Positions 26,522 to 48,713 of a DNA stretch of 51,101 nucleotides are shown here, in pieces. The stretch covers positions 1 to 51,101 of the forward strand of contig DAISWF010000010.1 of NCBI GenBank assembly GCA_036826495.1, given 5' to 3'. The notes under the pieces were generated by a model. The model worked only from the letters and a program-made list of their open reading frames with translations, was not told the origin of the DNA and did no database searches. The position numbers and the translations under genes were made by a program. This DNA comes from Burkholderiaceae bacterium. Lineage in GTDB: Bacteria; Pseudomonadota; Gammaproteobacteria; Burkholderiales; Burkholderiaceae_E. Each line of letters starts with the position of its first letter. Position 1 is the first letter of the stretch.

Positions 26522-26619
26522 GTCTGAAATGGAACGATCTGGTCACGTCCGGGCAGCGCAACGAGCCGTCGCAGCCCTGGCCGGGCATCGCCATCGAGGT
26601 GATCGACATCCTCTGCGTT

Positions 26620-26669: not shown

Positions 26670-26716
26670 CCTGTCGAGTGCATCTCGATGGCCTCGGCCG
26701 CCGGAGCGGCACCGCG

Positions 26717-27892: not shown

Positions 27893-28012
27893 AACGACCC
27901 GCATGCTCACCATGTTCGCTGGCGCGTCGTCCAGCGCATGCACCGGACCTGCTGGCAGCCGGGCGCTACTGACATGGGCTGCATCTTCAAGAACAGCGGC
28001 CTGTACCGGCGG

Positions 28013-28666: not shown

Positions 28667-28688
28667 GCCGCGACACGAGGTCCGCGAC

Positions 28689-31066: not shown

Positions 31067-31852
31067 TCAACGCGGTTTGTGAAGGTCGTCGAGCACGACG
31101 CTCAACTGGTAGACGTCGGGCCGCAGCAAATGGGTGGTCGTCTCGACCGGCGTACCGTTCGCATCGCGTGTGATGCGATCGAGCACCAGCAGGTAGGCGC
31201 TCTGCGAGATCTCCAGCGCCTGAGCGCTGGCCGGCGAAGGTTGACGGCACGAGACGAGGAACTGCGCTTGCCGCAGTTCGAGTTTCAGCTTCTTCTTCAG
31301 CAGTTCGTAGATCGGCCGGCGGTCGACGTCCTCGCGGGTGATGCGGCGGCCGATGTCGTGCGGCACGGTGATCCGCGTGATCGCATGCGGCACCCCGCGC
31401 AGCAGGTAGCGGCGCTCGTAGCACAGCACCGGCCGCTGCCAGGCCTGCAGTTCGGCGGGCAGGTCGGGCTCGTCGATCCAGTCGAAGCGGGTGACTTCGA
31501 CGCGGACGTCCTCGCCGAACTGCCGGAAGGTTTCCAGGAACGGCGCCAGCCGGTCGATCGAGTGCACGATCCGCGGCAGCGGCCGCGCAACGAAGGTGCC
31601 CTTGCCCTGTCGGCGCACGAGCAGCCCTTCGGCGACCAGCCGGTCCAGCGCCTTGCGCACCGTCGATCGGCTGACGCCGTACTGGCGCGTGAGGAACTCT
31701 TCCGTGGGCGCTTGGTCGCCGGGGGCGAGCTCGCCCCCGAGATGTTCACGAAGGCGGTCCAGGATCTGTTCGTACAGCGAATGGGCGCTGTCCCGCTCGA
31801 GAGAGGGCCCGGAGCGGCGCGCGCGACTGTTGGATATGCGTGGCGTGTTCAT
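31067..31852 (-). CDS. GntR-family regulator, HutC subfamily
   Basis: 261 aa. HTH is APTEEFLTRQYGVSRSTVRKALDRLVAEGLLVRRQGKGTFV, followed by a UTRA-like C-terminus. Divergent from the 15-gene operon. Confidence 0.9.
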   Translation of the reverse strand: MNTPRISNSRARRSGPSLERDSAHSLYEQILDRLREHLGGELAPGDQAPTEEFLTRQYGVSRSTVRKALDRLVAEGLLVRRQGKGTFVARPLPRIVHSIDRLAPFLETFRQFGEDVRVEVTRFDWIDEPDLPAELQAWQRPVLCYERRYLLRGVPHAITRITVPHDIGRRITREDVDRRPIYELLKKKLKLELRQAQFLVSCRQPSPASAQALEISQSAYLLVLDRITRDANGTPVETTTHLLRPDVYQLSVVLDDLHKPR

Positions 31853-31885
31853 GCGCCGAGGGTATCAAGGGGCTTGCGGCTGTTT

Positions 31886-31958
31886 TTAATTGTATGCTAT
31901 TGTCTGCGTATGATACAAGTCAATTAGAGACCGGCTCCGTAGTCGGACGCCGTAGTCG
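31886..31958. promoter_or_regulatory. AT-rich divergent promoter/operator region plus a 9-bp direct repeat in the leader
   Basis: Inverted repeat is TTGTAT (31890-31895) / ATACAA (31913-31918). The perfect palindrome GTATGATAC (31908-31916) contains the -10-like TATGAT. On the minus strand, TTGTAT, an 18-nt spacer and TACAAT could serve the GntR gene. CCGTAGTCG occurs twice (31937-31945 and 31950-31958). Confidence 0.45.
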
Positions 31959-31978: not shown

Positions 31979-32803
31979 GTGTCACCCGTCACCACGACTC
32001 TCTCGCCCGCCGGCAGCCTGCAGCCGCGGCGCCGCAAGCCCTGGCCCAATGCGGCGATCGCCGCCGTCTCACTGGTCCTGATTGCGACGCTGTGGACGGT
32101 GGTGTCCACCTCCGGCTGGCTGCCGCAGGGCTATCTGCCGTCGCCGCAGGAGCTGTTCGCCGAACTGATGACGCTGGCCACGGTCGGTTACAAGGGCACG
32201 TCGCTGTGGATGCACATCGGCATCAGCCTGTTCCGCACGCTGACCGGCTTCATGCTCGGCATCGCGCTGGGCATTCCACTGGGCCTGCTGACCGGCTACA
32301 ACCGCGTGGCCGGCGCCGCCGTCTCGCCGGTCATGGCCTTCATCCGCCCCATTCCGCCGATCGCCTTCATTCCGATGGTGGTGCTGTATTTCGGTCTGGG
32401 CGAGACCGGCAAGGTGGTGCTGATCTTCTGGACCGCATTCAACTACGTGCACGTCAACGCGCATGCCGGCGCGGCCGGCGTGCCGATCTCCTACCTGCGC
32501 GCCGCGAAGTCGATCGGGCTGACCGACCGTCAGACGTTCTTTCGCGTGGTGCTGCCGGCGGCGATACCGCAGATCTTCACCGGCCTGAAGGTCGGCATGG
32601 CACTCGCGTGGGCGGTGGTGGTGGCCGCCGAACTGACGGGGGCGCAGTCGGGGCTCGGCTACATGATCGCCGATGCGGCACTGACCTTCCGGATCGCGGC
32701 CGTCTTCATCGGCATCGCCCTGATCGGGCTGATCGGGCTGGCCTTGAACATCGCGCTGAACTTCCTGGAAGCGCGGGTGGTGCACTGGAGGGGGCGCACG
32801 TGA
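31979..32803 (+). CDS. ABC transporter permease, NitT/TauT family
   Basis: 274 aa with GTG start. Close paralogue of 16455-17264; shared blocks include FIRPIPPIAFIPM, VLYFGLGETGKVVLI and VVVAAEL. Confidence 0.9.
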   Translation: MSPVTTTLSPAGSLQPRRRKPWPNAAIAAVSLVLIATLWTVVSTSGWLPQGYLPSPQELFAELMTLATVGYKGTSLWMHIGISLFRTLTGFMLGIALGIPLGLLTGYNRVAGAAVSPVMAFIRPIPPIAFIPMVVLYFGLGETGKVVLIFWTAFNYVHVNAHAGAAGVPISYLRAAKSIGLTDRQTFFRVVLPAAIPQIFTGLKVGMALAWAVVVAAELTGAQSGLGYMIADAALTFRIAAVFIGIALIGLIGLALNIALNFLEARVVHWRGRT

Positions 32804-33465
32804 TCGACAAGCGCTGTCAGTCCGCCGCCCGGGCGGTAGCCTGCATCCGTCCGGGCATGACGGTGGCCGTGGGCGGCTTCGGCGACATCGGCGTGCCGCT
32901 CGCGCTGTGCGCCGCGCTCGCCGAGCACGACGTGCACGGACTCACCATCGTTTCGAACAACGCCGGCACCGCCGAGAACGGGCTGGCACTGCTGTTCAAG
33001 CAGCACCGCGTGGCCCGGCTGATCGCATCGTTTCCGTCGCAGCCCGGCGCCGACCACTTTCTGCGCGCCTGGCGTGAACGCGAGGTGGAGGTGGAACTGG
33101 TGCCGCAGGGCACGCTGGCCGAGCGGCTGCGCGCCGGCGGCTCGGGCCTGGCCGGCTTCTTCACCCCCACCGGATACGGAACCGAGCTGACCACCGGCAA
33201 GGAGACGCGATTCGTCGACGGCACCGGCTACGTCTACGAGCAGGCGTTGAAAGTCGACGTCGCTCTGGTCAAGGCGGAGCTGGCCGATCGCCTGGGCAAT
33301 CTGCGCTACCGGCTGGCCAGCCGCAATTTCAACCCGGTGATGGCGATGGCCGCCCGGCACACGATCGCGCAGGTGGGCCGGCTGGTCGAGCCCGGCGGCA
33401 TCGACCCGGACGACGTGCACACGCCCGGTGTGTATGTCGACGCCGTCGTGGAGCAGCGAGCATGA
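32800..33465 (+). CDS. 3-oxoacid CoA-transferase subunit A
   Basis: 221 aa from GTG 32800, with a GTGA overlap with the permease stop. Blocks include GMTVAVGGFGDIGVP, LTIVSNNAG, ELVPQGTLAERLRAGG and NFNPVMAMAA. Confidence 0.9.
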   Translation: MIDKRCQSAARAVACIRPGMTVAVGGFGDIGVPLALCAALAEHDVHGLTIVSNNAGTAENGLALLFKQHRVARLIASFPSQPGADHFLRAWREREVEVELVPQGTLAERLRAGGSGLAGFFTPTGYGTELTTGKETRFVDGTGYVYEQALKVDVALVKAELADRLGNLRYRLASRNFNPVMAMAARHTIAQVGRLVEPGGIDPDDVHTPGVYVDAVVEQRA

Positions 33466-34112
33466 GCGGAAGCACCGGCTGGAGCGACGACGAGCTCGCG
33501 CGCCGGGTCGCGCTGGACTTTCCCGACGGCGCCTGCGTGAACCTGGGCATCGGCCTGCCCACGCGGGTGGCGCGGCACGTGCCGGCCGACCGCGAGGTGC
33601 TGTTCCACAGCGAGAACGGCCTGGTCGGCATGGGTCCCGAACCGGCGCCCGGACGGGAGGATCCGGACATCGTCAATGCCGGCAAGAAGCCGGTAACGCT
33701 GGTTCGCGGCGCGGCGATCGTCCATCAGGCCGATTCGTTCTCGCTGATCCGCGGCGGGCGGCTGTGGGCCACGGTGCTGGGCGGCCTGCAGGTCGCCGAG
33801 AACGGCGATCTGGCGAACTGGAAGGTGCCGGGTACGCCCGGCGTCGGCGGCGTCGGCGGCGCGATGGATCTGGCGGCCGGCGCCCGGCGGGTCATCGTGA
33901 TGATGCGCCACACCGACAAGCAGGGCGCGCCCAAGCTCGTGCGGCGCTGCACTTTCCCTCTGACGGCGACCCGTTGCGTGACATCCGTGTTCACCGAGCT
34001 CGCAGTGATCGATCTGCGCGACGGGCACTTCGTCGTGCGCGAGGCGGCTCCCGGCGTCACGCGTGACCACCTGGCCGCGGCCACCGGGGCAGCGCTGCAC
34101 TTCAACGACTGA
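33462..34112 (+). CDS. 3-oxoacid CoA-transferase subunit B
   Basis: 216 aa with an ATGA overlap. Has NLGIGLPT, the catalytic-Glu motif SENG in FHSENGLVGMG, and GGAMDL. Confidence 0.9.
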   Translation: MSGSTGWSDDELARRVALDFPDGACVNLGIGLPTRVARHVPADREVLFHSENGLVGMGPEPAPGREDPDIVNAGKKPVTLVRGAAIVHQADSFSLIRGGRLWATVLGGLQVAENGDLANWKVPGTPGVGGVGGAMDLAAGARRVIVMMRHTDKQGAPKLVRRCTFPLTATRCVTSVFTELAVIDLRDGHFVVREAAPGVTRDHLAAATGAALHFND

Positions 34113-34134
34113 ACCAACCTCGAAAGGACCCGAG

Positions 34135-34908
34135 TTGAAACGATTCGACAATCAGGTGGTGATCGTCACCGGCGGCGGTGGCGGAATGGGGCTGGCGTTC
34201 TGCACGGCATTCGCTCGCGAAGGTGCGCGGGTGATCGCGGTCGACCGGCACGAGGCGGCCGTTCGCGCGACCTGCGACGCGATGGCGCGCGAGGATCTGC
34301 GCGGCGAGCCGCTGGCGCTGGACGTCGCCGACGAGCAGTCGGTCCGCCAGGCGTTCCAGGCCATCGCCGCGCGCCATGGCCGGATCGACGTGCTGGTCAA
34401 CGGCGCCGGCATCCGGCCGGTGGCCGACCTGCTCGACCAGTCGGCGGCCGAGTTCGACGCCTGCATGCGGGTCAACGGCACAGGCGTGTTCCTGTGCGCG
34501 CGCGAGGCGGCGCGCCACATGCTGCCGGCCGGGCGCGGCGCAATCGTCAACATCGCATCGGTCAACGGCATGCGCGCGGTCACCGGCATGGGCGCCTACT
34601 GCGCATCGAAGGCGGCGGTGATCTCGCTGACGCAGACGATGGCCAGCGAGTGGGGGCCGCGCGGCGTGCGCGTGAACGCGATCCTGCCGGCGCAGGTGGA
34701 GACGCCGATGATCGCCGAGCAGGTGGGTGCCGAGCGCCGGCGCCGAGAGGAGCGCATTCCGCTCGGGCGCTACGGCAAGCCGGCCGAGATCGCCGCCGGG
34801 GCGATGTTTCTCGCATCCGACGCCGCGTCGTTCATCAACGGGCATCCGCTCGCGCTGGACGGCGGCTACCTGGCGTTCGGCTTCCGCCCGCAGGTGGTGC
34901 CGCAATGA
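34135..34908 (+). CDS. Short-chain dehydrogenase/reductase (SDR)
   Basis: TTG start at 34135 follows gaaagga; the in-frame ATG at 34063 would overlap the previous gene by 50 nt. Motifs are TGGGGGMG, NGAG, catalytic YCASKAA, and the PG-like ILPAQVETPM. Confidence 0.88.
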   Translation: MKRFDNQVVIVTGGGGGMGLAFCTAFAREGARVIAVDRHEAAVRATCDAMAREDLRGEPLALDVADEQSVRQAFQAIAARHGRIDVLVNGAGIRPVADLLDQSAAEFDACMRVNGTGVFLCAREAARHMLPAGRGAIVNIASVNGMRAVTGMGAYCASKAAVISLTQTMASEWGPRGVRVNAILPAQVETPMIAEQVGAERRRREERIPLGRYGKPAEIAAGAMFLASDAASFINGHPLALDGGYLAFGFRPQVVPQ

Positions 34909-35534
34909 ACGCGCGCGACGAGAGCATCACGTTCGCGGAGGTCGAGGAGATCCTGCGCATCATCGATCAGTTCCCGGCCGCCGAGGTGACGTACCAGCGC
35001 GGTGACCTGAAGCTGCACGTCCGCCGGGCTGGGGCAGGTGTCGCGAGCCCCGCGCCGGCGGCCGGCGCCGTGATTGCCGGCGGGACGCAGGCTGCCGGCG
35101 CCGCACAGGCGGGTGCCGCGCAGGCGGGTGGCTTGCAGACAGGTGGCACGCAAACGGGAGGCATGCAGGCAGCCGGTACCGCGCAGGACGCCGGCGCCGC
35201 GCCGGCGATCGCCGCCCCGGCCGGCGCGGCCGGCATGACTGCCGCCGCCGCCGCGACGCACGGCGGCCCCGCCGATCGCGACGGCCTGGCCGCCGTCGTG
35301 TCGCCGCTGATGGGCGCCTTCTATGCGGCGCCGGCGCCGGATGCGCCGCCGTTCGTCGAGGTCGGCCGGCGCGTCGTTCCTGGCGACGACCTCTGCATCA
35401 TCGAAGTGATGAAGGTGATGAACCTGATCAAGGCCGAAGTGGCCGGAGTCGTCATAGCGGTCGAGGCGGTCAACGCGGCGATCGTCGAACGCGGCCAGCC
35501 GCTGATGTGGATCCGGCCGGAGGTGGCGCCATGA
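34905..35534 (+). CDS. Biotin carboxyl carrier protein (free-standing BCCP)
   Basis: 209 aa with an ATGA overlap. The biotinyl domain is GDDLCIIEVMKVMNLIKAEVAGVV, with the Lys in the V-M-K-V context. The N-terminal segment is ITFAEVEEILRIID. The linker is long and rich in G/A/Q. Confidence 0.85.
   Translation: MNARDESITFAEVEEILRIIDQFPAAEVTYQRGDLKLHVRRAGAGVASPAPAAGAVIAGGTQAAGAAQAGAAQAGGLQTGGTQTGGMQAAGTAQDAGAAPAIAAPAGAAGMTAAAAATHGGPADRDGLAAVVSPLMGAFYAAPAPDAPPFVEVGRRVVPGDDLCIIEVMKVMNLIKAEVAGVVIAVEAVNAAIVERGQPLMWIRPEVAP
35100..35174 (+). repeat. Five tandem 15-nt units encoding xxQxG pentapeptide repeats in the BCCP linker
   Basis: Units are gccgcacaggcgggt | gccgcgcaggcgggt | ggcttgcagacaggt | ggcacgcaaacggga | ggcatgcaggcagcc. 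They encode AAQAG AAQAG GLQTG GTQTG GMQAA. Confidence 0.8.
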
Positions 35535-36685
35535 CCGGCCGCCACGACCCGGCGGCCGCGCTGGTCGGCGCGGCCGAGTCCGATCTGGGGGCGGTGCCCG
35601 ATCGCACCGCGGCCGAACTGGCGGTGCAGGCCTCGCTGGCGGCGCTGGACGATGCCGGCCTGTCGCTGGCCGATGTCGACGGCCTGTTCACCGCCAATCT
35701 GTCGCGGTTCTCGGTGACACAGCTCGCCGAACAGCTCGCGATCCAGCCGGCGGTGCTGGACTGCACGATGACCGGCGGCTCGTCGTTCGAGATGCACGTC
35801 GCGCATGCGGTGTCGGCCATCCGTGCCGGGCTGTGCGAGGTGGCGCTGATCGCCTACGGCAGCGTGCAGCGGTCGCGCAAGGCGCGCAATCTGCAGGGGT
35901 TCTCCGAGAACGGCACGTCGGCCGCGCTGTACGAGAACTGCTACGCGCCGCTGTTTCCGCTGTCGTTCTACGCGCTGGTTGCCCAGCGATACATGCACGA
36001 GACCGGCGCCACCGGCGAGGACCTGGCGCGGGTGGCGGTCGCGGCGCGGCAGTGGGCGGCGCTGAATCCCAAGGCGTTCAAGCGCGAGCCGCTGACGCTG
36101 GCCGACGTGATGGCCTCGCCGATGGTCAGCTCGCCGCTGCGCGGGCTGGACTGCTGCCTGGTCACCGACGGCGGCGGCGCGGTGGTGGTCGCCAGCGCAG
36201 CGCGCGCGAAGTCGCTGAAGAAGAAGCCGGTCTGGGTGCTCGGCCACGGCGAAGCCACGACGCACGACGCGATGTCGCAGGCGCCGGACCTGCTGCGCCA
36301 CGGATCGGCCGATTCGGCGAGCCGCGCCTACGCGATGGCCGGCGTGACGCCCGCGGACGTCGACGTCACGCAGATCTACGACGCATTCACGATCAACGTG
36401 CTGGTCGGGCTGGAGAACCTGGGTTTCTGCGGGCCGGGCGAGGCGCGTCACTTCATCGCCGAGCGCGGCATCGGGCCCGGCGGCCGCTTCGCGCTCAACA
36501 CCACCGGGGGCGGACTGTCGTACTGCCATCCCGGCATGTTCGGCGTGTTCCTGCTGATCGAGGCCGTGCGCCAGCTTCGCGGCGAGTGCGGCGAGCGCCA
36601 GGTGCGCGACGCGCGCATCGCGCTGGCGCATGGCACCGGCGGAATCTTCAGTTCGCATGCCACCGTGATCATGGGGGTTCAATGA
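35531..36685 (+). CDS. SCP-x/nonspecific-type thiolase-like protein (DUF35-partnered)
   Basis: 384 aa from ATG 35531 with an ATGA overlap. The thiolase fold lacks the canonical biosynthetic-thiolase motifs. C-terminal blocks are NTTGGGLSYCHPGMFG and GTGG. It is followed by a DUF35 gene, as in BbsAB-type and archaeal thiolase complexes. Confidence 0.85.
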   Translation: MTGRHDPAAALVGAAESDLGAVPDRTAAELAVQASLAALDDAGLSLADVDGLFTANLSRFSVTQLAEQLAIQPAVLDCTMTGGSSFEMHVAHAVSAIRAGLCEVALIAYGSVQRSRKARNLQGFSENGTSAALYENCYAPLFPLSFYALVAQRYMHETGATGEDLARVAVAARQWAALNPKAFKREPLTLADVMASPMVSSPLRGLDCCLVTDGGGAVVVASAARAKSLKKKPVWVLGHGEATTHDAMSQAPDLLRHGSADSASRAYAMAGVTPADVDVTQIYDAFTINVLVGLENLGFCGPGEARHFIAERGIGPGGRFALNTTGGGLSYCHPGMFGVFLLIEAVRQLRGECGERQVRDARIALAHGTGGIFSSHATVIMGVQ

Positions 36686-37092
36686 TGGGCAATCCGAGGC
36701 CGCTTCCGGAAGCCGACAACGGTGCCGCCGCGTTCTGGGAGGGCGCCCGCCGTGGCGAACTGCTGGTGCAGCGCTGCGACGACTGCGGCAATCATCAACA
36801 CTACGCGCGCCCGTTCTGCGTAGCCTGCCGGGGACGCAGGCTGACGATGGTACCGGTCGGTGGCCGCGGCGTGCTGCACTCGTTCACCGTCGTGCACCGC
36901 GCACCCTTCGACGATCTGCCGGCACCGTACGTGGTCGCGCTGGTGCGGTTGCAGGAAGGGCCGACGATCCTTTCGCACCTGGTCGGCTGCGATCCGGCCG
37001 CCGCGCGGTGCGACATGCCGGTGCGCGTGGACTTCCAGCCGCTGCGCGACGGCGTGATGCTGCCGGTGTTCCGCTCGGCGGACGGAGCCTGA
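36682..37092 (+). CDS. DUF35 Zn-ribbon + OB-fold protein (thiolase partner)
   Basis: 136 aa with an ATGA overlap. The rubredoxin-like segment CDDCGNHQHYARPFCVACRG is followed by an OB-fold segment GRGVLHSFTVVH...YVVALVRLQEGP. Confidence 0.8.
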   Translation: MMGNPRPLPEADNGAAAFWEGARRGELLVQRCDDCGNHQHYARPFCVACRGRRLTMVPVGGRGVLHSFTVVHRAPFDDLPAPYVVALVRLQEGPTILSHLVGCDPAAARCDMPVRVDFQPLRDGVMLPVFRSADGA

Positions 37093-37096
37093 CGCG

Positions 37097-38463
<1,367 letters not shown>

Positions 38464-38467
<4 letters not shown>

Positions 38468-39951
38468 CTCCCCCTTTCAGACTGATGGACATCACGGTGC
38501 GCGACGCCCAGCAGTGCCTGTGGGCGACGCGGATGACCACCGAGCAGATGCTGCCGATCGCGCGCACTATGGACGCGGCCGGCTTCGACGTCATCGACCT
38601 GACCGGCGGCGCGGCGATCGACGCGAGCGTGATGTTCCTGAACGAGAACCCGTTCGAGCGGATCCGCGAGATGGCGAAGCTGGTGCGCCGCACGCCGATG
38701 AACTTCAACACGCGCGGACAGAGCATCTTCCGCTGGATGCAGTACGCCGACGACGTGGCCGAGTTCACGCTCGATCTGCTCGCGCGCTGCGGCATCCGCT
38801 CGATCATGGTGTTCGACGCGCTCAACGACTTCCGCAACGCGCGCGCCACCGTGCGCTACGCCAAGGCGCTGGACCTGTACATCATCGGCGCGGTCACCTA
38901 TACGATCAGCCCGGTGCACACCGACGAGCACTTCGTCGGCAAGGTGCGCGACCTGGTCGCGATGGGCGTCGACGCGATCGAGCTGAAGGATCCGAGCGGG
39001 CTGCTGACGCCCGAGCGCATCCGTACGCTGGCGCCCAAGCTGCGCGCCGTCAAGGGCCGCTGCCAGTTGCAGCTCCATTCGCACTGCACCTTCGGGCACG
39101 GCGTGGACACCTACCGCGCCGCGATCGAGCTGCCGCCGGACCAGGGGTTCGACCTGTTCCATGCGGCGGCGCGGCCGCTGGCGCACGGCTATTCGCTGCC
39201 GCCGCACGAGCACGTGCTGGCCGAGGCCGACCGCGTGGGCCGCGCGGTGGCGATCGACCGCGACGCGATCCGCGAGATGGACCGCTACTTCTCCCTCATC
39301 ACCCGCCGGGCCGGGCGGGCGGAGGGCAGCCAGCCGCCGCTGCAGTCGGTCGACGTCGACCACCAGGTGCCCGGCGGCATGATGAGCAACCTCGAGCAGC
39401 AGCTCAGGGACCAGGGCCAGGCCCACCGCCTGCCCGAGGTGCTGAACGAGGTGGGCCGGGTGCGGCGCGACCTGGGCTGGCCGATCGTCGTCAGCCCGAT
39501 GGCCCAGTACCTGGGCACGCAGGCGGTGCTGAACGTGCTGACCGGCAAGCGATATCAGATCGTGCCGCAGGAGATCAAGCAGTACGTGCTGGGTTACTAC
39601 GGCGAGCTGGCGGCCCCGGTGGACGCGGAAGCCCGCGAGGCCATCGCCGGAGACGAGCCGTCGATCACCCGGCCGCCGGGGGAGCTGCTGCCGCCGATGA
39701 TGGCCGAGTACCGTCGCCAGTTCGCCGGCGCCAGAGACGACGAGGAGCTGGCGCTGCGCATCTTCTATACCCGGCGGACCGTCGACGAGCACTTCCGGCA
39801 GCGCCTGCTGGTCAAGCCCGGGGCGCTGGCCACCGATGCCGGCAGCTTCCTGGCGCGCGCGATGCTGTCCGACCCCGGCATCGAGCTGGTGGATGTGAAG
39901 CGCCGCGGCTTCCACTTCGCGATGAACCGTGCGGCGACCGCTGCCGCCTGA
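38464..39951 (+). CDS. 5S/HMGL-type carboxyltransferase (pyruvate carboxylase subunit B / oxaloacetate decarboxylase alpha-like) without a biotinyl domain
   Basis: 495 aa with an ATGA overlap. TIM-barrel start is LMDITVRDAQQCLWATRM. Has ELKDPSGLLTP and metal ligands in LHSHCTFGHG. The conserved C-terminal region is present, but there is no MKM biotinyl domain. Confidence 0.88.
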
Positions 39952-39967
39952 CCCCGAGGAACCTTCC

Positions 39968-40282
39968 ATGGTACGCATAGAGATCATCCTGTTCCGCAAC
40001 CACATGACGCTCGAAGAGCAGCAGCGCTGGTGGACGGAGGAGCACGCGCCGATCGCCCGCCGCATGCCCGGCCTGCGCGGCTACTTCATCAACATGGCCG
40101 GCCGCGGCGAAGCGGGCGAGGAGCCGGAGATCTGCGGCACCGACACGCTGACGTTCGATAGCTGGGAGGCGGCGCAGGCCGCCTACGAATCGCCGGAGTG
40201 GAAGGCGGCGCGCGAGCACACCAAGGCTTCCGGCGCGCGCGCGCTGCGCACCTGGGTACGGGACCAGGTCACCATCATCTGA
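39968..40282 (+). CDS. EthD-domain protein (dimeric alpha/beta-barrel superfamily)
   Basis: 104 aa starting MVRIEIILFRNHMTLEEQQRWWTEEHAPIARRMPGLRGYFIN...DSWEAAQAAYESPEW. SD gagga lies upstream of ATG 39968. Confidence 0.7.
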   Translation: MVRIEIILFRNHMTLEEQQRWWTEEHAPIARRMPGLRGYFINMAGRGEAGEEPEICGTDTLTFDSWEAAQAAYESPEWKAAREHTKASGARALRTWVRDQVTII

Positions 40283-40294
40283 GGGGCGGCGCAC

Positions 40295-41551
40295 GTGATT
40301 CTCACCGAAGAGGAACAGGACATGCTCGCCGGCCGGCACGGCGCCGCGCGGCGCGAGGCCATCAGCTACCAGATCGCCGTCGGCGACTTCTGGGGGGCCG
40401 AGCGGTTCGTGCCGATCACCAACGCCCACCTGATGGGCGACATCGAGGTGATGGGCGACGCCGGCCTCGGCTTCCTGGAGCGCGCCTGCGAAAAGCAGTA
40501 CGCCTGCAGCGTCCCGACGACCACCAATCCGCGCTGCATCGATTTCGCGCATGCGCAGTCGCTCGGGCAGGATGAAGTGGAGGCGGGCAAGGAAAGGCGC
40601 GTCATCCGGCTGCTGCGCGACATGAACATCGCGACCACCGACACCTGCATCAACTACCAGACGGTGTACCAGCCCCACGTCGGCGAGCATGTCGCCTGGG
40701 GCGATACCGGCACCGTGATCTACGCCAACTCGGTGTTCGGGGCGCGCAGCAACTTCGAAGGCGGCCCGGCGGTGCTGGCGGCGTCGGTCACCGGCCGCAC
40801 ACCGGCCTACGGCTTCCACCTGGACCGCCACCGCCGCGGCACGGTCGCGGTCCGGGTCGACGCGGCGCTGGACGACCTGGCCGACTGGGGAGCGGTCGGC
40901 AAGATCGTCGGCGAGGCGTACCAGAACTATTTCGCGGTGCCGGTATTCCACGGGCTGCGCCGCGCGCCGCAGGCCGACGAGCTGAAGCACCTGGGCTGCT
41001 CGCTGGCCAGCTACGGATCGATGGCGATGTTCCACATGGTCGGCGTGACGCCGGAGGCGCCGACCTTGGAAGCGGCGTTCGGCGGCGAGCCGCCGCAGGC
41101 CGAAATGGTGATCACCGATGCCGATCTGCAGCGCGTCTATGCCGGCTACTCCCGGGGAGACGGCAGTGCGACACTGGTCGTCTTCTCGGGCCCGCAGCTT
41201 TCGCTGTTCGAGATGAAGGACCTGGCGCAGCGCTTCGATGGCCGACGCGTGGCCCGCGGCACCGACGTCTACGTCACCACCGCCGCGTCGGTAAAGGCCT
41301 CGGCCGAACGGCTGGGCTACCTGAAGGTGCTGGAGGAGGCCGGCGTCACGGTGCTGGAGGGCGTCTGCTTCTACATCCTGCAGAACCTCACGCAGATGCG
41401 GCTGGCGCACGGCTGGACCAACATGGTGTCCAACTCGGCCAAGATCGTCAACATCATCGGCGCCCACCGTTCCAACACCCTCCTGCGCCGCACGCAGGAC
41501 TGCGTGGAGATCGCCGTCAGCGGCCGGCTCGAACCGGGGAGCGCCCGATGA
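40295..41551 (+). CDS. Aconitase X catalytic subunit (DUF521, AcnX large subunit)
   Basis: 418 aa with GTG start. Begins LTEEEQDMLAGRHG. Conserved blocks are ITNAHLMGD, TTTNP, CINYQ, WGDTGTVIYANSVFGARSN and MVSNSAK. Directly followed by a DUF126 gene. Confidence 0.85.
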   Translation: MILTEEEQDMLAGRHGAARREAISYQIAVGDFWGAERFVPITNAHLMGDIEVMGDAGLGFLERACEKQYACSVPTTTNPRCIDFAHAQSLGQDEVEAGKERRVIRLLRDMNIATTDTCINYQTVYQPHVGEHVAWGDTGTVIYANSVFGARSNFEGGPAVLAASVTGRTPAYGFHLDRHRRGTVAVRVDAALDDLADWGAVGKIVGEAYQNYFAVPVFHGLRRAPQADELKHLGCSLASYGSMAMFHMVGVTPEAPTLEAAFGGEPPQAEMVITDADLQRVYAGYSRGDGSATLVVFSGPQLSLFEMKDLAQRFDGRRVARGTDVYVTTAASVKASAERLGYLKVLEEAGVTVLEGVCFYILQNLTQMRLAHGWTNMVSNSAKIVNIIGAHRSNTLLRRTQDCVEIAVSGRLEPGSAR

Positions 41552-42009
41552 ACGCGGCGAGCGGCATTGCCGATGCCGTCGCCGCCGGCGTGCTGGCGAC
41601 GATCCGGGTGGAGCGCGCGTTCGGCCCGGTGGTCGAAGGCGCGGCGCTGGTTTCCGAAGAAGGTTTCTCGCCGCGCTACGACCTGGATCGCTGGACCGGG
41701 CTGATCACCAAGCCGGGCCACAAGCTCGAAGGCCACGACATCCGCGACCGCATCTGCTTCTTTCCCAGCGCCAAGGGCGGCATCGCGGCCGGCTGGGCGT
41801 TCCACGACATCAAGCACAAGAAGATCGCGCCGCGCGCGTTCGTGTTCGGCGTCACCAATCCGGTGATGGTGCAGGGTGCCGTCTTCGCCGGCATCACGAT
41901 CACCGAAGGTTGGTCGGCCGAGCCCGCCTCGCTGATCCGCAATGGCGACTGGGTGCGGGTGGACCCGGCGCGCAAGATCATCGAAGTGCTGCGGCGCGCG
42001 GCCGGCTGA
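41548..42009 (+). CDS. Aconitase X swivel-domain subunit (DUF126, AcnX small subunit)
   Basis: 153 aa with an ATGA overlap. Blocks are GFSPRYDLD...G, HDIRDRICFFPSAKGGIAAGWAF and PRAFVFGVTNPVMVQGAVFAGI. Confidence 0.8.
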   Translation: MNAASGIADAVAAGVLATIRVERAFGPVVEGAALVSEEGFSPRYDLDRWTGLITKPGHKLEGHDIRDRICFFPSAKGGIAAGWAFHDIKHKKIAPRAFVFGVTNPVMVQGAVFAGITITEGWSAEPASLIRNGDWVRVDPARKIIEVLRRAAG

Positions 42010-42039
42010 AGTTCACCAGAACCACAAGGGGAGACAACG

Positions 42040-43086
42040 ATGGAGTTCTCGACGTTACGCCGCTGGCTGGCCGCGGCCGCCACCGCGGCCCTGAGCCTTG
42101 CAGCCACGACCGTCGCTTCCGCCCAGGGAGCGCTGCAGAAGTTCAACTATGGCGTTCCGACCGCCGACTACTACGTGCTGTACGTGGCCAAGGACCAGGG
42201 CCTGTTCCAGAAGCAGGGGCTGGATCCGCAGTTCTTCTTCTTTCCGTCGGGAGCACCGCTGCTGGCGGCGCTCAAGAGCGAAAGCGTGGACATCATCTCC
42301 ACCGGCTTGGCGACCGCGTTCGCCCTGGGACAGAAGATCCCGCTGAAACTGATCTTCTGGGAGATGGACGATTCGGCCGGCGAAGGCGTGATCGTCAGTC
42401 CGAAGTCGGGCATCCGGACGATCACCGATCTGCCCAAGGCCAAGGCGATCGGCGCACCGTCGGGCACCTGCGCGCAGGTGGCGCTGGGGCTGATCGCGCG
42501 CAAGATCGGCGTCAAGCCGTCCGACTTCAAGACCGTCAACATCGCGCCGCCGCTGTACGCCAACGCGTTCAGCAGCAATTCGCTCGATGCCGGCGTGGCG
42601 TGGGCGCCGTTCCTGCAGGCGCTGGCCGAGCAGGGGCAGACGATCATCGCCTATGACGCCGACTACGGCATCGACGGCGGGATCTGCCCGGTGATGACGG
42701 GCGGCCGCACGAAGTTCCTGCAGCAGAATCCGGAGATCGGCCACAAGCTCGTGCGGATCAATGCCGAGGCGGCGGCGATGATCGAGAAGAATCCACAGCT
42801 CGCGATCGACGCGCTGGTCAAGTATCTGTCGGTCACGCCGACGGTTGCCAAGGCGACCTATGAGCGCCTGTGCTGCGCGCGCCGCCCGACCTTCGCGCAG
42901 CAGTTGGACCCGGCGTCGCCGTATTCGATGGTCAACCGCGATGGCGGCCTGGTGAAGAAGCTGCTGATCGCCACTCAGGTGCTGGCCGAGGCGGGCACGA
43001 TACCGGCCGCGCTGACGGTGGACGAGATCGTGCAGGCGCTCGACACGAGCTACCTGCGCCGCTACGTCGAGGCGGCCGGCAAGTGA
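42040..43086 (+). CDS. ABC transporter substrate-binding protein (NMT1/THI5-like)
   Basis: 348 aa. Signal peptide is MEFSTLRRWLAAAATAALSLAATTVASAQG. SD ggggaga lies upstream. Close paralogue of 17261-18295. Confidence 0.9.
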   Translation: MEFSTLRRWLAAAATAALSLAATTVASAQGALQKFNYGVPTADYYVLYVAKDQGLFQKQGLDPQFFFFPSGAPLLAALKSESVDIISTGLATAFALGQKIPLKLIFWEMDDSAGEGVIVSPKSGIRTITDLPKAKAIGAPSGTCAQVALGLIARKIGVKPSDFKTVNIAPPLYANAFSSNSLDAGVAWAPFLQALAEQGQTIIAYDADYGIDGGICPVMTGGRTKFLQQNPEIGHKLVRINAEAAAMIEKNPQLAIDALVKYLSVTPTVAKATYERLCCARRPTFAQQLDPASPYSMVNRDGGLVKKLLIATQVLAEAGTIPAALTVDEIVQALDTSYLRRYVEAAGK

Positions 43087-43901
43087 ACGCCCTGCACATC
43101 CCTCTGCCCCCGGTGAAGATCGCCTTCCAGGGGGTTCAGAAATCGTATCCGGCCAAGCATGCTTCGCAGGCACCGACGCTCGCGCTGGACCGGCTCGACG
43201 TCGCGATACGGGACGCCGAGATCGTCTCGGTGCTCGGCCCCACCGGCTGCGGCAAATCGACGGCGCTGAATCTGATCGCCGGATTCGAGGAGGCGAGCAG
43301 CGGCGCTGTCGTGCTGGATGGCCAGCGCGTGGAGGGGCCGGGGCCCGATCGGGCGGTGGTGTTCCAGCAGGCGTCGCTGTTCCCGTGGCTGAACGTCTTC
43401 GACAACGTGACGCTCGGCGTGCGCTGCCGCGGCGTGCCGCCGTCGGACTACACGCCGCGCGCCGAACACCTGCTCGACGCGGTAGGGTTGACCGCCTTCG
43501 CGAAGCATTTCCCCTACCAGCTTTCCGGCGGCATGCAGCAGCGCGTGCAGATCGCCCGCGCGCTGATCGCGCAGCCCAAGGTGCTGCTGATGGACGAACC
43601 GTTCGGCGCACTGGACTACCAGACACGCATCTTCATGCAGGAACTGCTGCTGAAGTTGTGGGTCGAGTTCAAGCCGACGGTGTTCTTCATCACGCACGAC
43701 GTGTCCGAGGCGATCTTCGTCTCCGACCGGGTGCTGGTGATGAGCCGGCGGCCCGGCCGCGTGAAGCTGGCCGTCGATGTGCCGGCGCCGAAGCCGCGCA
43801 CCGCCGATTTCTTCAGCACGCCCGACTTCGTCGAGCAGCAGCGGCGATTGCTGCGCGCCGTGCAGGACGAGGTGCAGGGCGTCGAGGCCGTCGCGCACTG
43901 A
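43083..43901 (+). CDS. ABC transporter ATP-binding protein (NitT/TauT family)
   Basis: 272 aa from GTG 43083 with a GTGA overlap. Motifs are [18 protein letters not shown] and [11 protein letters not shown]. Close paralogue of 18332-19201. Confidence 0.92.
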
Positions 43902-43912
43902 GGACCCCAGCC

Positions 43913-45583
43913 ATGACCCGAGACCTCGAAGGCGAGTTCGACTACATCATCGTCGGCGCCGGCTCGGCCGGCTGCGTGCTCGCCGACCGTTTGACCGAAA
44001 GCGGCGAGCACCGGGTGCTGCTGCTGGAGGCCGGGCCGCCCGACCGCAATCCGTGGATTCACATCCCGATCGGCTATGGCAAGACGATGACCGATCCGGT
44101 GGTCAACTGGCGCTTCGAGACCGAACCGGAGCCGCACCTGCATGACCGGCGGCTGTACTGGCCGCGCGGACGCACGCTGGGCGGATCGAGCTCGATCAAC
44201 GGCCTCATCTACGTGCGCGGCCATCCGGCCGACTACGATGCGTGGGCCGCGCTGGGCAACCCCGGGTGGGGCCACGACGACCTGCTGCCGTGCTTCAGGC
44301 GCTCGGAGACCAATTCGCGGGGCGCCAGCGCCTGGCACGGCGACGCCGGGCCGATGCACGTGTCGGACATCGGCATCCGCCATCCGCTGGTCGAGGCGTT
44401 CATCGCCGGCGCCGCGGAGCTGGGCATTCCTCGCACCGAGGACTTCAACGGGCCGCGGCAGGAGGGCTCCGGCTACTATCAGTTGACAACGCGGCGCGGG
44501 TTGCGCTCGTCCACCGCGCGCAGCTATCTCGCGCGGGCGCGGCGGCGGCCGAACCTGAAGGTGCTGACCGGCGCTCATGCGACCGGGCTGGTGTTCGATG
44601 GCCTGCGCGCGACCGGCGTGACCTGGCGCCGCGGCGGCCAGGACGAACGGGCGCGCGCGCGGCGCGAGGTGCTGTTGGCCGCCGGCGCGATCCAGTCGCC
44701 GCAGATATTGGAGCTGTCGGGCATCGGCCAGCCCGAGCGGCTTGCGCCGCTCGGCATCCCGGTACGCGTGCCGACGCACGGGGTCGGCGAGAACCTGCAG
44801 GATCATCTGCAGGTGCGGCTGATCTACCGCTGCACGCAGCCGGTGACCACCAATGACGACTTGCGTACGCCGTGGGGCCGCGCGCGCATCGGCCTGCAAT
44901 GGCTGTTGCGGCGATCGGGGCCGCTGGCGATAGGCATCCAGCTCGGAGGTCTGTTCGCCCGCGCGCTCCCGGAAGCCGACCGGCCCGACGTCCAGTTCCA
45001 TTTCGGCACCATCAGCGCCGATGCGGTGGCCGGCAAGCCGCATGATTTCTCGGGTTTCACGCTGTCGATGTGCCAGCTTCGGCCCAGCAGCCGCGGCAGC
45101 ATCCATCTGAAGACGCGCGACCCGCTGAATGCGCCCGCCATCCGTCCGAACTACCTGGCGACCGAGCACGATCGAGCGGTGATGGTGGCGGGCACCCGAT
45201 TGTCGCGCGCGCTGATGCGCACGCATGCGATGGCGCCGTTCATCGCGGCCGAGCACAAGCCCGGCGCAGCGATGGGCGACGATGACGCCGCCATGCTGGA
45301 GTTCGTGCGTCGCGAGAGCGTGACGATCTTTCATCCGGTCGGCACCTGCGCGATGGGGCCTGACGAGGACGCGGTGGTCGATGCACGACTGCGCGTCTAC
45401 GGGACCGCAGGGTTGCGCGTCGTCGACGCCTCGATCATGCCGCTGCTCGTTTCCGGCAACACCAACGCGCCGGCGATCGCAGTGGCCGAGAAGGCGGCCG
45501 GACTGATCCTGGCCGACGGCCGCGCCGGCGCACCCGTCATCGCCCGACGCGGACGACAAGCGGAGACCATCGACGCCGCCTGA
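43913..45583 (+). CDS. GMC-family FAD oxidoreductase
   Basis: 556 aa from ATG 43913. Motifs are FDYIIVGAGSAGCVLADRL, GRTLGGSSSINGLIYVRG, and IFHPVGTCAMG...LRVVDASIMPLLVSGNTNA. Confidence 0.92.
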   Translation: MTRDLEGEFDYIIVGAGSAGCVLADRLTESGEHRVLLLEAGPPDRNPWIHIPIGYGKTMTDPVVNWRFETEPEPHLHDRRLYWPRGRTLGGSSSINGLIYVRGHPADYDAWAALGNPGWGHDDLLPCFRRSETNSRGASAWHGDAGPMHVSDIGIRHPLVEAFIAGAAELGIPRTEDFNGPRQEGSGYYQLTTRRGLRSSTARSYLARARRRPNLKVLTGAHATGLVFDGLRATGVTWRRGGQDERARARREVLLAAGAIQSPQILELSGIGQPERLAPLGIPVRVPTHGVGENLQDHLQVRLIYRCTQPVTTNDDLRTPWGRARIGLQWLLRRSGPLAIGIQLGGLFARALPEADRPDVQFHFGTISADAVAGKPHDFSGFTLSMCQLRPSSRGSIHLKTRDPLNAPAIRPNYLATEHDRAVMVAGTRLSRALMRTHAMAPFIAAEHKPGAAMGDDDAAMLEFVRRESVTIFHPVGTCAMGPDEDAVVDARLRVYGTAGLRVVDASIMPLLVSGNTNAPAIAVAEKAAGLILADGRAGAPVIARRGRQAETIDAA

Positions 45584-47008: not shown

Positions 47009-47051
47009 TGCGCAAGGCGATGGACATCCGCTTTACCAGCCCTTTTACCCA

Positions 47052-47081
47052 TTGACAGAGCTTTCTACCGCGGGGTAACTT
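47052..47081 (+). promoter_or_regulatory. Candidate sigma70 promoter
   Basis: Perfect -35 TTGACA (47052-47057), an 18-nt spacer, then TAACTT (47076-47081), in a relatively AT-rich intergenic region. Confidence 0.4.
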
Positions 47082-47106
47082 CAGGGTTGTCCGGCATGCA
47101 CCGGTC

Positions 47107-47136
47107 ATCGTGATCCGAAAGATCGTGATCCGAAAG
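47107..47136 (+). repeat. Perfect 15-bp tandem duplication ATCGTGATCCGAAAG x2
   Basis: Units are 47107-47121 and 47122-47136. They lie between the candidate promoter and the uORF/CDS start. Confidence 0.95.
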
Positions 47137-47175
47137 AAGCGGCGCCGGGTCTCACCGGCACCCGAGGAGGCGTCA

Positions 47176-47192
47176 ATGGGTTCGATCCGGCG

Positions 47193-47196
<4 letters not shown>
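47176..47196 (+). other. 6-codon upstream ORF (MGSIRR) whose stop overlaps the ATG of the downstream CDS
   Basis: Strong SD GAGGAGG (47164-47170) lies 5 nt before ATG 47176. The reading is ATG GGT TCG ATC CGG CGA TGA. This TGA (47194-47196) overlaps the main ATG (47193-47195). The main ATG has no SD of its own. Confidence 0.5.

Positions 47197-48693
<1,497 letters not shown>

Positions 48694-48713
<20 letters not shown>

Follow-up and report, generated by a model that had tools for sequence, protein, structure and literature searches.

A conserved operon combining a three-subunit biotin carboxylase with a Cys-less thiolase-fold protein, a putative catabolic unit of a Burkholderiaceae bacterium

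The operon, its regulator and its recurrence

Fifteen co-directional genes on the plus strand occupy positions 31979–45583 of a 51,101-nucleotide stretch of DNA from a Burkholderiaceae bacterium (GenBank assembly GCA_036826495.1, contig DAISWF010000010.1, positions 1 to 51,101 of the forward strand), referred to here as the window. They encode an ABC importer, a class I CoA-transferase, a short-chain dehydrogenase/reductase (SDR), the three parts of a biotin-dependent carboxylase (biotin carboxyl carrier protein, BCCP; biotin carboxylase, BC; and carboxyltransferase, CT), a thiolase-fold protein with a DUF35 partner, an EthD-family protein, a two-subunit aconitase X (AcnX) and a GMC flavoenzyme (Table 1). 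The gene set is not a chance mosaic and forms one functional, catabolic-looking unit, as a preliminary description of this DNA, made from the letters without database searches, had proposed and as its recurrence across loci supports. Our reading of it, a tentative one, is a conserved, repressor-controlled unit for the catabolism of a small anionic or zwitterionic compound by a route that pairs a carboxylase with an aldolase.

The largest gap between the genes is 30 nt. Eight of the 14 junctions are 4-nt start/stop overlaps (GTGA at 32800 and 43083; ATGA at 33462, 34905, 35531, 36682, 38464 and 41548), and the other six measure 22, 4, 16, 12, 30 and 11 nt. Gene starts were picked by GC content at third codon positions and ribosome-binding sites; those of genes 1–14 are the same in independent gene calls from another assembly of the organism (L001). 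Families were assigned with Pfam and NCBIfam profile searches, in which no enzyme scored above a curated equivalog cut-off. The preliminary description had reported the uninterrupted run of 15 genes, the eight overlaps and the family names; the run and the overlaps were recovered at the positions it gave, and the profile searches upheld every name. Tight packing with overlaps is usual for operons at the GC content of this window (about 70%) and is therefore not significant alone; what lifts the cluster above chance is the conservation of its gene set in other phyla.

One genome per species was scanned with an alignment of CT homologues, which gave 76 loci, and these were compared with all window proteins by tblastn. 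Thirteen loci (L005–L014, L020, L023 and L075) make up the clade of the window CT, and 63 are other CT loci. Represented in the clade are Burkholderiales (Paucibacter, Roseateles, Rubrivivax, Ramlibacter and further metagenome-assembled genomes, MAGs), Alphaproteobacteria (one Rhizobiales MAG), Gammaproteobacteria (Aquisalimonas lutea) and Actinobacteria (three Arthrobacter, Leucobacter and Specibacter); the same set is also present in L082 and L085–L087 (Variovorax sp. SRS16 and three metagenome contigs). Recurrent in these loci, at 50–89% identity over four bacterial classes, are genes for a GntR regulator, a NitT/TauT-type ABC system with two or three binding proteins, CoA activation, the SDR, BCCP, thiolase-like protein, DUF35, BC, CT and EthD. 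The order of the genes is rearranged from lineage to lineage, which argues for selection on co-localisation, and the check on synteny that the preliminary description had called for thus finds the set well beyond this genome, from Burkholderiales to Actinobacteria. The regulator is found in 11 of the 13 loci, the permease (56–76% identity) and the SDR each in 12, and the ABC ATPase is 59–79% identical over the related loci. The BCCP was missed by the default tblastn filter because of its low-complexity linker. The AcnX pair is present in most related loci, often divergently oriented and past the binding protein, and the flanks beyond the cluster are heterogeneous. Abutting the cluster in three lineages are genes of biotin synthesis or a biotin ligase (L082, 11975–17606; L085, 1493–2494 and 13538–14299; L086, 12005–12991), in the form of bioA/F/D/B plus a P450, of bioB alone, or of a biotin–protein ligase.

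Upstream of the operon is the divergent gene of a GntR/UTRA regulator of the HutC subfamily, separated from it by 126 nt with a GC content of 52%, compared with about 70% for the window; the HutC-type regulator and a comparatively AT-rich intergenic region, read as a divergent promoter in the preliminary description, are thereby recovered. Within this region is an inverted repeat that constitutes a candidate operator, together with a sigma-70-like match on the minus strand (31923–31894). Palindromic motifs of the type GTATGC..GTATGCATAC occupy the same intergenic position in L005, L006 and L008, and one also lies upstream of a Thiomonas GntR gene beside a stand-alone pair of AcnX and MFS transporter genes. 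An Rfam scan of the window found no riboswitch or other RNA family. Beyond the regulator is the gene of a binding protein, SBP0, which lies outside the interval first described and yet is kept with the cluster; its orthologues (64–76% identity) adjoin the GntR gene in L005, L006, L008, L009, L023 and L082.

Table 1. Features of the window with coordinates, strand and the matches behind each assignment (scores in bits)
Feature	Coordinates	Strand	Basis
SBP0, SsuA/NMT1-type periplasmic binding protein	29949–31010	-	Pfam NMT1_2/NMT1; NCBIfam SsuA_fam below cut-off
GntR/UTRA regulator (HutC subfamily), divergent from operon	31067–31852	-	Pfam GntR + UTRA
Candidate operator and promoter	31885–31923	.	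Inverted repeat TTTAATTGTAT / ATACAAGTCAA, containing GTATGATAC
G1, ABC permease (TauC/SsuC-like, NitT/TauT family)	31979–32803	+	Pfam BPD_transp_1; TauC 177, below cut-off of 342
G2, class I CoA-transferase subunit A	32800–33465	+	TIGR02429 303, above cut-off of 128.5
G3, class I CoA-transferase subunit B	33462–34112	+	TIGR02428 297, above cut-off of 243.6
G4, short-chain dehydrogenase/reductase	34135–34908	+	Pfam adh_short_C2; TGGGGGMG and YCASK motifs
G5, BCCP with long Ala/Gly/Gln-rich linker	34905–35534	+	Pfam Biotin_lipoyl; TIGR00531 117.6, above cut-off of 115.2
G6, thiolase-fold protein without nucleophilic Cys, predicted Ltp2/Sal-like retro-aldolase	35531–36685	+	Alignment and PDB matches
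G7, DUF35 partner (C4 zinc ribbon and OB fold)	36682–37092	+	Pfam zf-ChsH2 + OB_ChsH2_C
G8, biotin carboxylase (ATP-grasp), intact	37097–38467	+	Biotin_carb_N, CPSase_L_D2, Biotin_carb_C; PRK08591 617, above 597
G9, 5S-type carboxyltransferase without fused BCCP	38464–39951	+	Pfam HMGL-like + PYC_OADA
G10, EthD-family protein (dimeric alpha/beta-barrel fold)	39968–40282	+	Pfam EthD
G11, AcnX large subunit, uncharacterised subclass	40295–41551	+	Pfam AcnX PF04412, 386
G12, AcnX swivel (small) subunit	41548–42009	+	Pfam AcnX_swivel_put PF01989, 68
G13, second SsuA/NMT1-type binding protein	42040–43086	+	Pfam NMT1
G14, ABC ATPase	43083–43901	+	Pfam ABC_tran
G15, GMC flavoenzyme	43913–45583	+	Pfam GMC_oxred_N/C; PRK02106 610 against cut-off of 605; betA 515 against 732
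Companion operon	7397–19201	-	Pfam on identical region in L083, and NCBIfam
Companion ABC ATPase	18332–19201	-
Companion binding protein	17261–18295	-
Companion permease	16455–17264	-
Companion aldehyde dehydrogenase (ALDH), SSADH-like	15010–16455	-
Companion Rieske oxygenase, phthalate-dioxygenase-like	13591–14991	-
Companion reductase	12606–13562	-
Companion GntR	11799–12584	-
Companion sulfatase, choline-sulfatase-like, below cut-off	10336–11793	-	CIPAR formylglycine motif
Companion GMC	8631–10325	-
Companion canonical thiolase	7397–8593	-

Active-site features of the conserved enzymes

The carboxylase is made of three separately encoded subunits. The BCCP (G5, 209 aa) carries the biotinylation motif EVMKVMN and a low-complexity linker, about 90 residues long, in which Ala, Gly, Gln and Thr are abundant, and the BC (G8, 456 aa) has all three BC domains; the 'split biotin carboxylase' of the preliminary description is accurate for the holoenzyme, whose BCCP, BC and CT are separate genes, but not for the BC gene itself, which is intact. 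Aligned with PycB (PDB 5ks8), OadA (2nx9) and 5S (1rqb), the CT (G9) retains R13, D14, Q17, R84, K175-D176, H205, H207 and S308. Its metal and catalytic residues are thus all kept, along with the BCCP motif and a complete BC, as in the 5S-type superfamily. The pocket differs at H16Q, S18C, x20W, GY90-91RW and M177P, giving RDAQQCLW, RGQS..RW and KDP where PycB, OadA and 5S have RDxHQSL, RGQN..GY and KDM. In a neighbour-joining tree (computed without bootstrap, with PDB sequences transcribed from HMMER alignments), the window CT appears in a clade of its own that excludes PycB, OadA and 5S; these three fall outside a superclade of 77 CTs with common Cys18 and Trp20, within which the window clade is sister to the rest. 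By motifs and clade alike, the CT does not match the pyruvate-specific enzymes.

The CT motif scan also picked up a complete acvABCDEF-like cluster in a Sphingobium sp. MAG (L070, 3910–12400), whose CT falls in the part of the superclade outside the window clade, with genes in the order PEP-utiliser, PPDK_N, BCCP, BC, CT and HAD phosphatase; the acvABCDEF arrangement has been described for acetovanillone carboxylation. In two more distant clusters, from Burkholderia and Variovorax (L066, 8484–11428; L047, 8471–11434), two adjacent CT-like paralogues accompany BCCP, BC, DUF35, AMP-ligase and Cys-less thiolase-like genes, and similar clusters are found in about 25 Variovorax, Paraburkholderia and Cupriavidus loci. 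In the better-matching paralogue, Gly or Ala replaces the carbamylated Lys, and HxH begins with Asn instead of His; its neighbour shares 26% identity with the window CT and carries Arg-Asp for Lys-Asp and His-Thr-Arg for HxH. Judged by these residues, the paired paralogues are possibly non-catalytic or differently metallated subunits.

Placed between the BCCP and BC genes are those of the thiolase-fold protein (G6) and of DUF35 (G7), whose start overlaps the G6 stop and whose zinc motif is Cys-x2-Cys-x10-Cys-x2-Cys. Matches of G6 in the PDB are 4u4e (uncharacterised, 2e-104), 9myr (the steroid aldolase CtSal, 1e-50), 6ok1 (the steroid aldolase TcLtp2, 1.5e-49), 7yvy (a genuine thiolase, 5e-41) and 7pxp (BbsB, 5e-37); of the characterised proteins, the aldolases CtSal and TcLtp2 come nearest, with true thiolases matching at 5e-41 or weaker. 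At the position of the thiolase nucleophile is Gly83 (MTGGSS, versus EAACASGG in 7yvy), which aligns with CtSal Gly89, and in place of the His of the thiolase HDAF motif is Tyr283 (YDAF), which aligns with Ltp2 Tyr294 and Sal Tyr302; the His of the thiolase GHP motif is retained as His333 (CHPG). G82, G83, Y283, D284, F286 and H333 are invariant in 36 of 36 CT-linked homologues, among which no conserved Cys occurs at or near the nucleophile position (Cys78 varies), and the related loci are all free of canonical thiolases within 10 kb. According to the 2025 paper on Sal (PMC12329534), a Gly in place of the nucleophile precludes thiolysis and the Tyr serves as catalytic base; the paper also notes DUF35 proteins as scaffolds in multi-enzyme complexes. 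Found here together are the Gly, the Tyr in a YDxF/Y motif and the zinc-ribbon DUF35 partner that mark the Ltp2 and Sal systems. Gly for Cys and the aldolase-type Tyr make retro-aldol cleavage likelier, and the thiolytic cleavage put forward in the preliminary description less likely; G6 is probably a retro-aldolase.

The AcnX pair (G11 and G12) comprises both the catalytic and the swivel domain of the family. TkAcnX, an archaeal mevalonate-5-phosphate dehydratase, is the nearest structure to G11 (8.6e-61, versus 1e-39 for cis-3-hydroxyproline dehydratase) and has the same two-subunit architecture; Cys118 and Cys358 of G11 align with two of its cluster ligands, and Asn78 with its Asn79. The phosphate loop G48-V49-S50/N53 of TkAcnX reads G48-(deletion)-D49/V52 in G11, Asp replaces Glu129, Gly299 takes the place of the third cluster ligand, Cys283, and the small subunit has KGGI in place of the catalytic Ser-Thr of KGST (Ser62-Thr63). 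D49, D137, C81, C118, C358 and C403 are invariant in 122 homologues of G11, with Cys81 and Cys403 being extra to TkAcnX. The landmarks of Type IIb, the mevalonate-5-phosphate dehydratases (Cys ligands 110, 283 and 342, loop G48-V49-S50/N53 and small-subunit Ser62-Thr63), are thus changed at Cys ligand 283, in the phosphate loop and at Ser62-Thr63. An identity as cis-3-hydroxyproline dehydratase was rejected: NF051439 scores 209 bits against a cut-off of 700, the equivalents of Asp203 and Ile206 are Met47 and Asp49, and there is no proline-metabolism context. The window AcnX matches subclasses IIc–IIf, bacterial groups that have neither landmark residue set and whose function was left open by Watanabe et al. 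(2021). Recognition of a carboxylate plus a C3 hydroxyl is common to the AcnX family (PMC8184944).

AcnX large and small genes without any carboxylase genes occur in Thiomonas sp. X19 (L002, 6985–13129) and in L003 and L004; the Thiomonas pair is accompanied by a GntR/UTRA regulator 58% identical to that of the window, by the same palindromic motif and by an MFS transporter. AcnX can therefore be separated as a module, and its product must be of use by itself; these stand-alone pairs, at 72–75% identity, rule it out as a marker of the cluster.

The tightest marker is EthD (G10), which all 13 window-clade loci carry and all of the 63 other CT loci lack. Its subfamily amounts to about 70 protein clusters among 5.8 billion sequences, none of them with a fusion that would hint at function. 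The AF2 model (pLDDT of 96) matches EthD BH0200, 4-methylmuconolactone methylisomerase, olivetolic acid cyclase, SnoaB and hydroxynitrile lyase, which are small acid–base catalysts of carbonyl and enolate chemistry (isomerases, cyclases and lyases); the fold search identifies the generic dimeric alpha/beta-barrel family and nothing more specific.

Of the importer components, G13 has its best PDB matches among sulfonate- and taurine-binding proteins (1e-12 to 2e-9) and is 59% identical to SBP3, the binding protein of the companion operon described below. Both CoA-transferase subunits pass the cut-offs of the class I 3-oxoacid family, and subunit B carries the catalytic Glu motif SENG at residue 50. 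In Actinobacteria a 690-aa ADP-forming acyl-CoA synthetase replaces the transferase at the same place, and an AMP-forming ligase is present in 37 of the 63 more distant CT loci. Three non-homologous CoA-activating enzymes across the superclade imply that the free acid must be CoA-activated.

Known relatives and candidate routes

This gene combination is not described in the searchable full text, whose coverage of subscription journals is small. The earlier statement that the cluster matches no pathway therefore stands for the exact combination but was too strong otherwise, as the published p-ethylphenol/4-hydroxyacetophenone route shares steps with it: an SDR, a three-subunit biotin carboxylase with a PycB-like CT, CoA activation and a predicted thiolase. 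The logic has partial precedents; the exact pathway is undescribed. The cluster joins elements of the aryl-ketone carboxylase and steroid aldolase systems and adds an ABC importer, an AcnX of uncharacterised subclass and an EthD of its own.

Aryl methyl-ketone routes comprise HacABC/XccABC with AcsA1 and TioL1 (Aromatoleum aromaticum EbN1), HpeCBA (Rhodococcus rhodochrous GD02) and AcvCDE (Sphingobium sp. SYK-6); carboxylases related to the 4-hydroxyacetophenone enzyme act on acetovanillone. They resemble the window in having three separate subunits, with a PycB-like CT free of fused BCCP, encoded in a catabolic cluster alongside SDR, CoA-activating and thiolase-fold proteins. The derived motif RD(Q)QCLW is common to the window CT and the acv-cluster orthologue in L070. 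The window CT is 35% identical to that AcvE orthologue, stands in a separate clade and differs from it at positions 80–91, while keeping R84-G-Q86; XccA, HpeB and TioL were compared by description only. Since the identity to PycB is also 35%, membership of the aryl-ketone carboxylase family cannot be claimed; the common ground is the architecture and the derived motif. The phenol kinase (PEP-utilising/PPDK-like) and HAD phosphatase of L070, a pair that provides the phosphorylated substrate, are absent from the window cluster and from all 16 related loci, in which each gene has an assignment. The window cluster adds the ABC importer, AcnX and EthD, and its thiolase-fold protein has no nucleophilic Cys.

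The steroid systems, ChsH1–ChsH2(DUF35)–Ltp2 of actinobacteria and Shy(DUF35)–Sal of Comamonas testosteroni, share with the window the thiolase fold with Gly at the nucleophile position and Tyr base in YDxF, and the DUF35 zinc-ribbon/OB partner. In them a hydratase supplies the beta-hydroxy substrate, and the products are acetyl- or propionyl-CoA and a ketone or aldehyde; the same logic is proposed for the window. G6 is 33–37% identical to the steroid aldolases and has Ala as the third motif residue, where Ltp2 has His and Sal has Cys. The window further departs from those systems in that its DUF35 stands free of any MaoC hydratase and hydration would fall to an Fe-S AcnX with a free acid as substrate; the gene context has no link to steroids, and the aldolase-like protein is coupled to a carboxylase, which all steroid systems lack.

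With PycB, OadA and 5S, and with 2-oxoglutarate carboxylase (CfiAB, likened by description and not by sequence), the window enzyme shares RD..Q, the carbamylated-Lys KD, HxH and PGGM(x)S/T, as well as an ATP-grasp BC and a BCCP; it differs from PycB, OadA and 5S in the replacement of H16, S18, G90-Y91 and M177, in the absence of BCCP fusion and in its catabolic context. Ketone-body and beta-ketoadipate metabolism (acetone carboxylase, ScoAB/PcaIJ and thiolase) offers a parallel in logic, as a ketone is carboxylated with ATP to a beta-keto acid, which is then handed to a class I 3-oxoacid CoA-transferase; the window C–C cleavage enzyme, unlike theirs, falls outside the canonical thiolases. Acetone carboxylase, for its part, does not use biotin.

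As far as active-site residues can be read from sequence, there is direct support for a predicted ATP- and biotin-dependent carboxylation beside a carbonyl group, a C–C cleavage enzyme apparently unable to act as a thiolase and a putative carboxylate-specific hydro-lyase. From the gene set, its conservation and these features we infer a mechanism and an order of steps. The NitT/TauT-type ABC system, with its two or three binding proteins, would import the compound and close analogues (step 1). AcnX, as a hydro-lyase interconverting enoate and beta-hydroxy acid, and the SDR, interconverting hydroxy and oxo groups, would set the oxidation and hydration state (step 2), and the class I CoA-transferase, or in Actinobacteria the ADP-forming CoA ligase, would form the thioester (step 3). 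G6 with DUF35, as an Ltp2/Sal-type retro-aldolase, would then cleave the beta-hydroxyacyl-CoA to acetyl-CoA and a ketone or 2-oxo acid (step 4). With ATP and bicarbonate, BCCP, BC and CT would carboxylate the carbon adjoining the carbonyl of this cleavage product (step 5), turning an otherwise dead-end compound into a beta-keto acid that could return to step 4 or enter central metabolism by way of the CoA-transferase and SDR. EthD, with its small enolate-chemistry fold, may aid the keto/enol handling of the labile beta-keto acid (step 6). In Burkholderiales, the companion module (sulfatase, GMC, ALDH and Rieske oxygenase) probably converts sulfate-ester, alcohol and aldehyde precursors to the acid.

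The scheme is weakest where step 4 is placed before step 5. Aldolase before carboxylase would explain both the need for a carboxylase and the interleaving of its genes with those of the aldolase-like protein and DUF35, all five being translationally coupled; the reverse order, with carboxylation, CoA transfer, reduction and then retro-aldol cleavage, is also consistent with the data. Candidate substrates, each of which matches some features, are levulinate, 3-methylcrotonate/acetone, citramalate-type acids, 4-sulfoacetophenone and crotonobetaine. Somewhat unlikely is an arrangement in which AcnX and the Cys-less aldolase would excise acetyl-CoA at a blocked (beta-substituted) carbon while DUF35 tethers the aldolase to the carboxylase, so that the remaining ketone or 2-oxo acid would pass straight on to ATP-dependent carboxylation, in a metabolon with EthD as a new accessory subunit; in cyclic form, it would if true be a reverse 2-oxoacid-elongation pathway in aerobic heterotrophs.

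Several observations weigh against the carboxylase–aldolase route. Aldolase activity of G6 would follow from two of three hallmarks, as the second catalytic residue of known aldolases is not clear: the position of Sal Cys304 is Ala285, and HMMER aligns Tyr331 with Ltp2 Tyr344, whereas MAFFT aligns His333 there (position 331 is Tyr or Phe across the family). For this reason G6 is termed aldolase-like here, not an orthologue of Ltp2 or Sal. The CoA-transferase belongs to the 3-oxoacid family, a better match to a beta-keto than to a beta-hydroxy acid acceptor. Owing to the missing catalytic Ser/Thr of characterised AcnX enzymes in G12, the AcnX reaction may not be a simple (de)hydration, and owing to the stand-alone pairs in Thiomonas sp. 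X19 and two metagenome contigs, AcnX may be peripheral rather than a core step. The CT is as close to PycB as to the acetovanillone-type CT, and its tree carries no bootstrap support values.

An unlikely competitor is a linear route of the Hac/Xcc type, in which the SDR would oxidise a secondary alcohol to a methyl ketone, carboxylation would yield a beta-keto acid and, after CoA transfer, G6/G7 would thiolyse it to acetyl-CoA and an acyl-CoA, while AcnX would let an enoate enter from the side. The same four steps are published for 4-hydroxyacetophenone (Hped1, HacABC, AcsA1 and TioL1), three-subunit carboxylases with a PycB-like CT use aryl methyl ketones, and the 3-oxoacid family of the CoA-transferase and the RD(Q)QCLW motif shared with L070 fit it too; thiolysis, however, is at odds with a protein that, like its 36 homologues, has Gly for the nucleophilic Cys and Tyr for the HDAF His. 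The cluster also has no kinase/phosphatase pair like AcvAB/AcvF or HpeHI/HpeD, and an ABC importer and a carboxylate-specific AcnX suit a neutral ketone nutrient poorly.

Distinctly unlikely is a reverse 2-oxoacid elongation, the heterotroph analogue of the Hydrogenobacter reductive-TCA segment from 2-oxoglutarate to oxaloacetate, in which every conserved enzyme would be used once in a reaction typical of its superfamily. A 2-oxo acid would be carboxylated at C3, reduced by the SDR to a 3-substituted malate, converted by AcnX to a 2-substituted malate, activated with CoA and cleaved by the aldolase to acetyl-CoA and a 2-oxo acid one carbon shorter. Work by Aoshima and co-workers in 2004–2006 reportedly covers the Hydrogenobacter enzymes: 2-oxoglutarate carboxylase, oxalosuccinate reduction, aconitase, citryl-CoA synthetase and citryl-CoA lyase. 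R13, Q17, R84, G85 and Q86 of the CT are those of pyruvate-type enzymes, the aryl-ketone CT having T84 and F86; AcnX is in the aconitase superfamily and the actinobacterial CoA ligase in that of succinyl/citryl-CoA synthetases, and a labile 3-carboxy-2-oxo acid would account for the dedicated EthD. Against these stand the cost for catabolism, ATP and NAD(P)H per C2 unit, the characterised AcnX enzymes, which only dehydrate and do not isomerise, the lack of precedent for an SDR in such a role, and a CoA-transferase family that points to a 3-oxoacid acceptor. Very improbable, and largely refuted by synteny, is a mosaic in which an anaplerotic pyruvate or 2-oxoglutarate carboxylase sits among unrelated transport, CoA-transferase and AcnX genes. 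Public names of the CT ('pyruvate carboxylase subunit B' and '2-oxoglutarate carboxylase large subunit'), the separable AcnX pair found alone elsewhere and the lineage-specific GMC addition would agree with it, but the set co-occurs over four classes in shuffled order, the CT pocket is unlike those of PycB, OadA and 5S at five lining positions and forms its own clade, EthD is strictly co-distributed with that clade, and the thiolase-like and DUF35 genes are inserted between carboxylase subunits with translational coupling.

The cluster is a tractable target for pathway discovery. Solving its pathway would give function to a new CT clade, a large group of Cys-less 'thiolases' that public pipelines label acetyl-CoA acetyltransferases, a bacterial AcnX subclass and an EthD subfamily. 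The solution would probably generalise, as a carboxylase with a Cys-less thiolase fold, DUF35 and a CoA-activating enzyme is found in dozens of Variovorax, Paraburkholderia, Cupriavidus and alphaproteobacterial loci. CO2-incorporating biocatalysis could make use of ATP-driven carboxylases of ketones or 2-oxo acids and of CoA-dependent aldolases. The last step of the published p-ethylphenol route is assigned only to a 'predicted thiolase', whose active-site residues deserve a check.

The GMC gene, the companion operon and neighbouring genes

Following the ABC ATPase gene after 11 nt, the GMC gene (G15) is predicted to be co-transcribed here with the operon. A homologue (43% identity) is present in only one of the 13 related loci (L005), so that the gene is outside the conserved set and was ruled out as a core enzyme; the alcohol oxidation listed as a pathway step in the preliminary description, if carried out by the GMC enzyme, is therefore lineage-specific.

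On the minus strand of the window is a companion operon, which the preliminary description had overlooked and which in the closest relatives is physically joined to the cluster. Orthologues of its sulfatase (76%), Rieske oxygenase (66%), ALDH (60%), binding protein and ATPase are found within the carboxylase cluster or immediately behind it in L005, L006, L007 and L020, and this merging in the four closest relatives indicates that the two operons of the window belong together. The sulfatase carries the CIPAR motif, lacks a signal peptide and is cytoplasmic; a sulfate ester is probably among the precursors in Burkholderiales. The choline-O-sulfate route (BetC/BetA/BetB) was rejected on scores below cut-off for the sulfatase (318 against 433 bits), betA (467–515 against 732) and BADH (362 against 669), and the best matches of the Rieske oxygenase are phthalate dioxygenases (1e-46) rather than GbcA or CntA. 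Choline sulfate, choline or carnitine, raised as substrates by the Bet-like matches and AcnX Asp49, fail at the equivalog cut-offs and rank as low-probability candidates.

Two further neighbourhoods bear on sulfur. In Aquisalimonas (L013, 11857–13695) a SulP/STAS anion transporter is encoded between EthD and GntR; SulP proteins also carry bicarbonate, and as a sulfur hint it is therefore ambiguous. In L087 (14908–17765) a TauE/SafE exporter adjoins a cluster of the actinobacterial type, and next come the genes of a pyridine-nucleotide disulfide reductase (CoA-disulfide reductase) with a rhodanese domain and of a CsoR-type repressor; presumably this resembles a cst-like sulfide-stress operon, to which the exporter may belong. 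The sulfur link is firm only for the sulfatase in Burkholderiales.

Between the two operons is a CoxLMS-type molybdenum hydroxylase cluster (20852–29831, plus strand), seen beside the carboxylase cluster only in assemblies of this organism. It encodes FAD, 2Fe-2S and Mo subunits, CoxG, a MoxR-like AAA ATPase, VWA/CoxE and a MocA-like nucleotidyltransferase, together with a 380-aa protein without a Pfam match. A 1008-aa open reading frame on the minus strand (26543–29569), with no Pfam match and overlapping plus-strand genes of high third-position GC, is almost certainly spurious, a product of high GC content. The 132 nt that follow G15 show no terminator-like site, and further downstream (45716–49521) are genes for an MFS transporter of the lactate/oxalate-formate type, an AMP-forming acyl-CoA ligase and a LivG-like ABC ATPase. 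Beside the companion operon (3845–7000; 19899–20642) are genes for a 1051-aa AAA_16/TPR regulator and a PAS-LytTR regulator.

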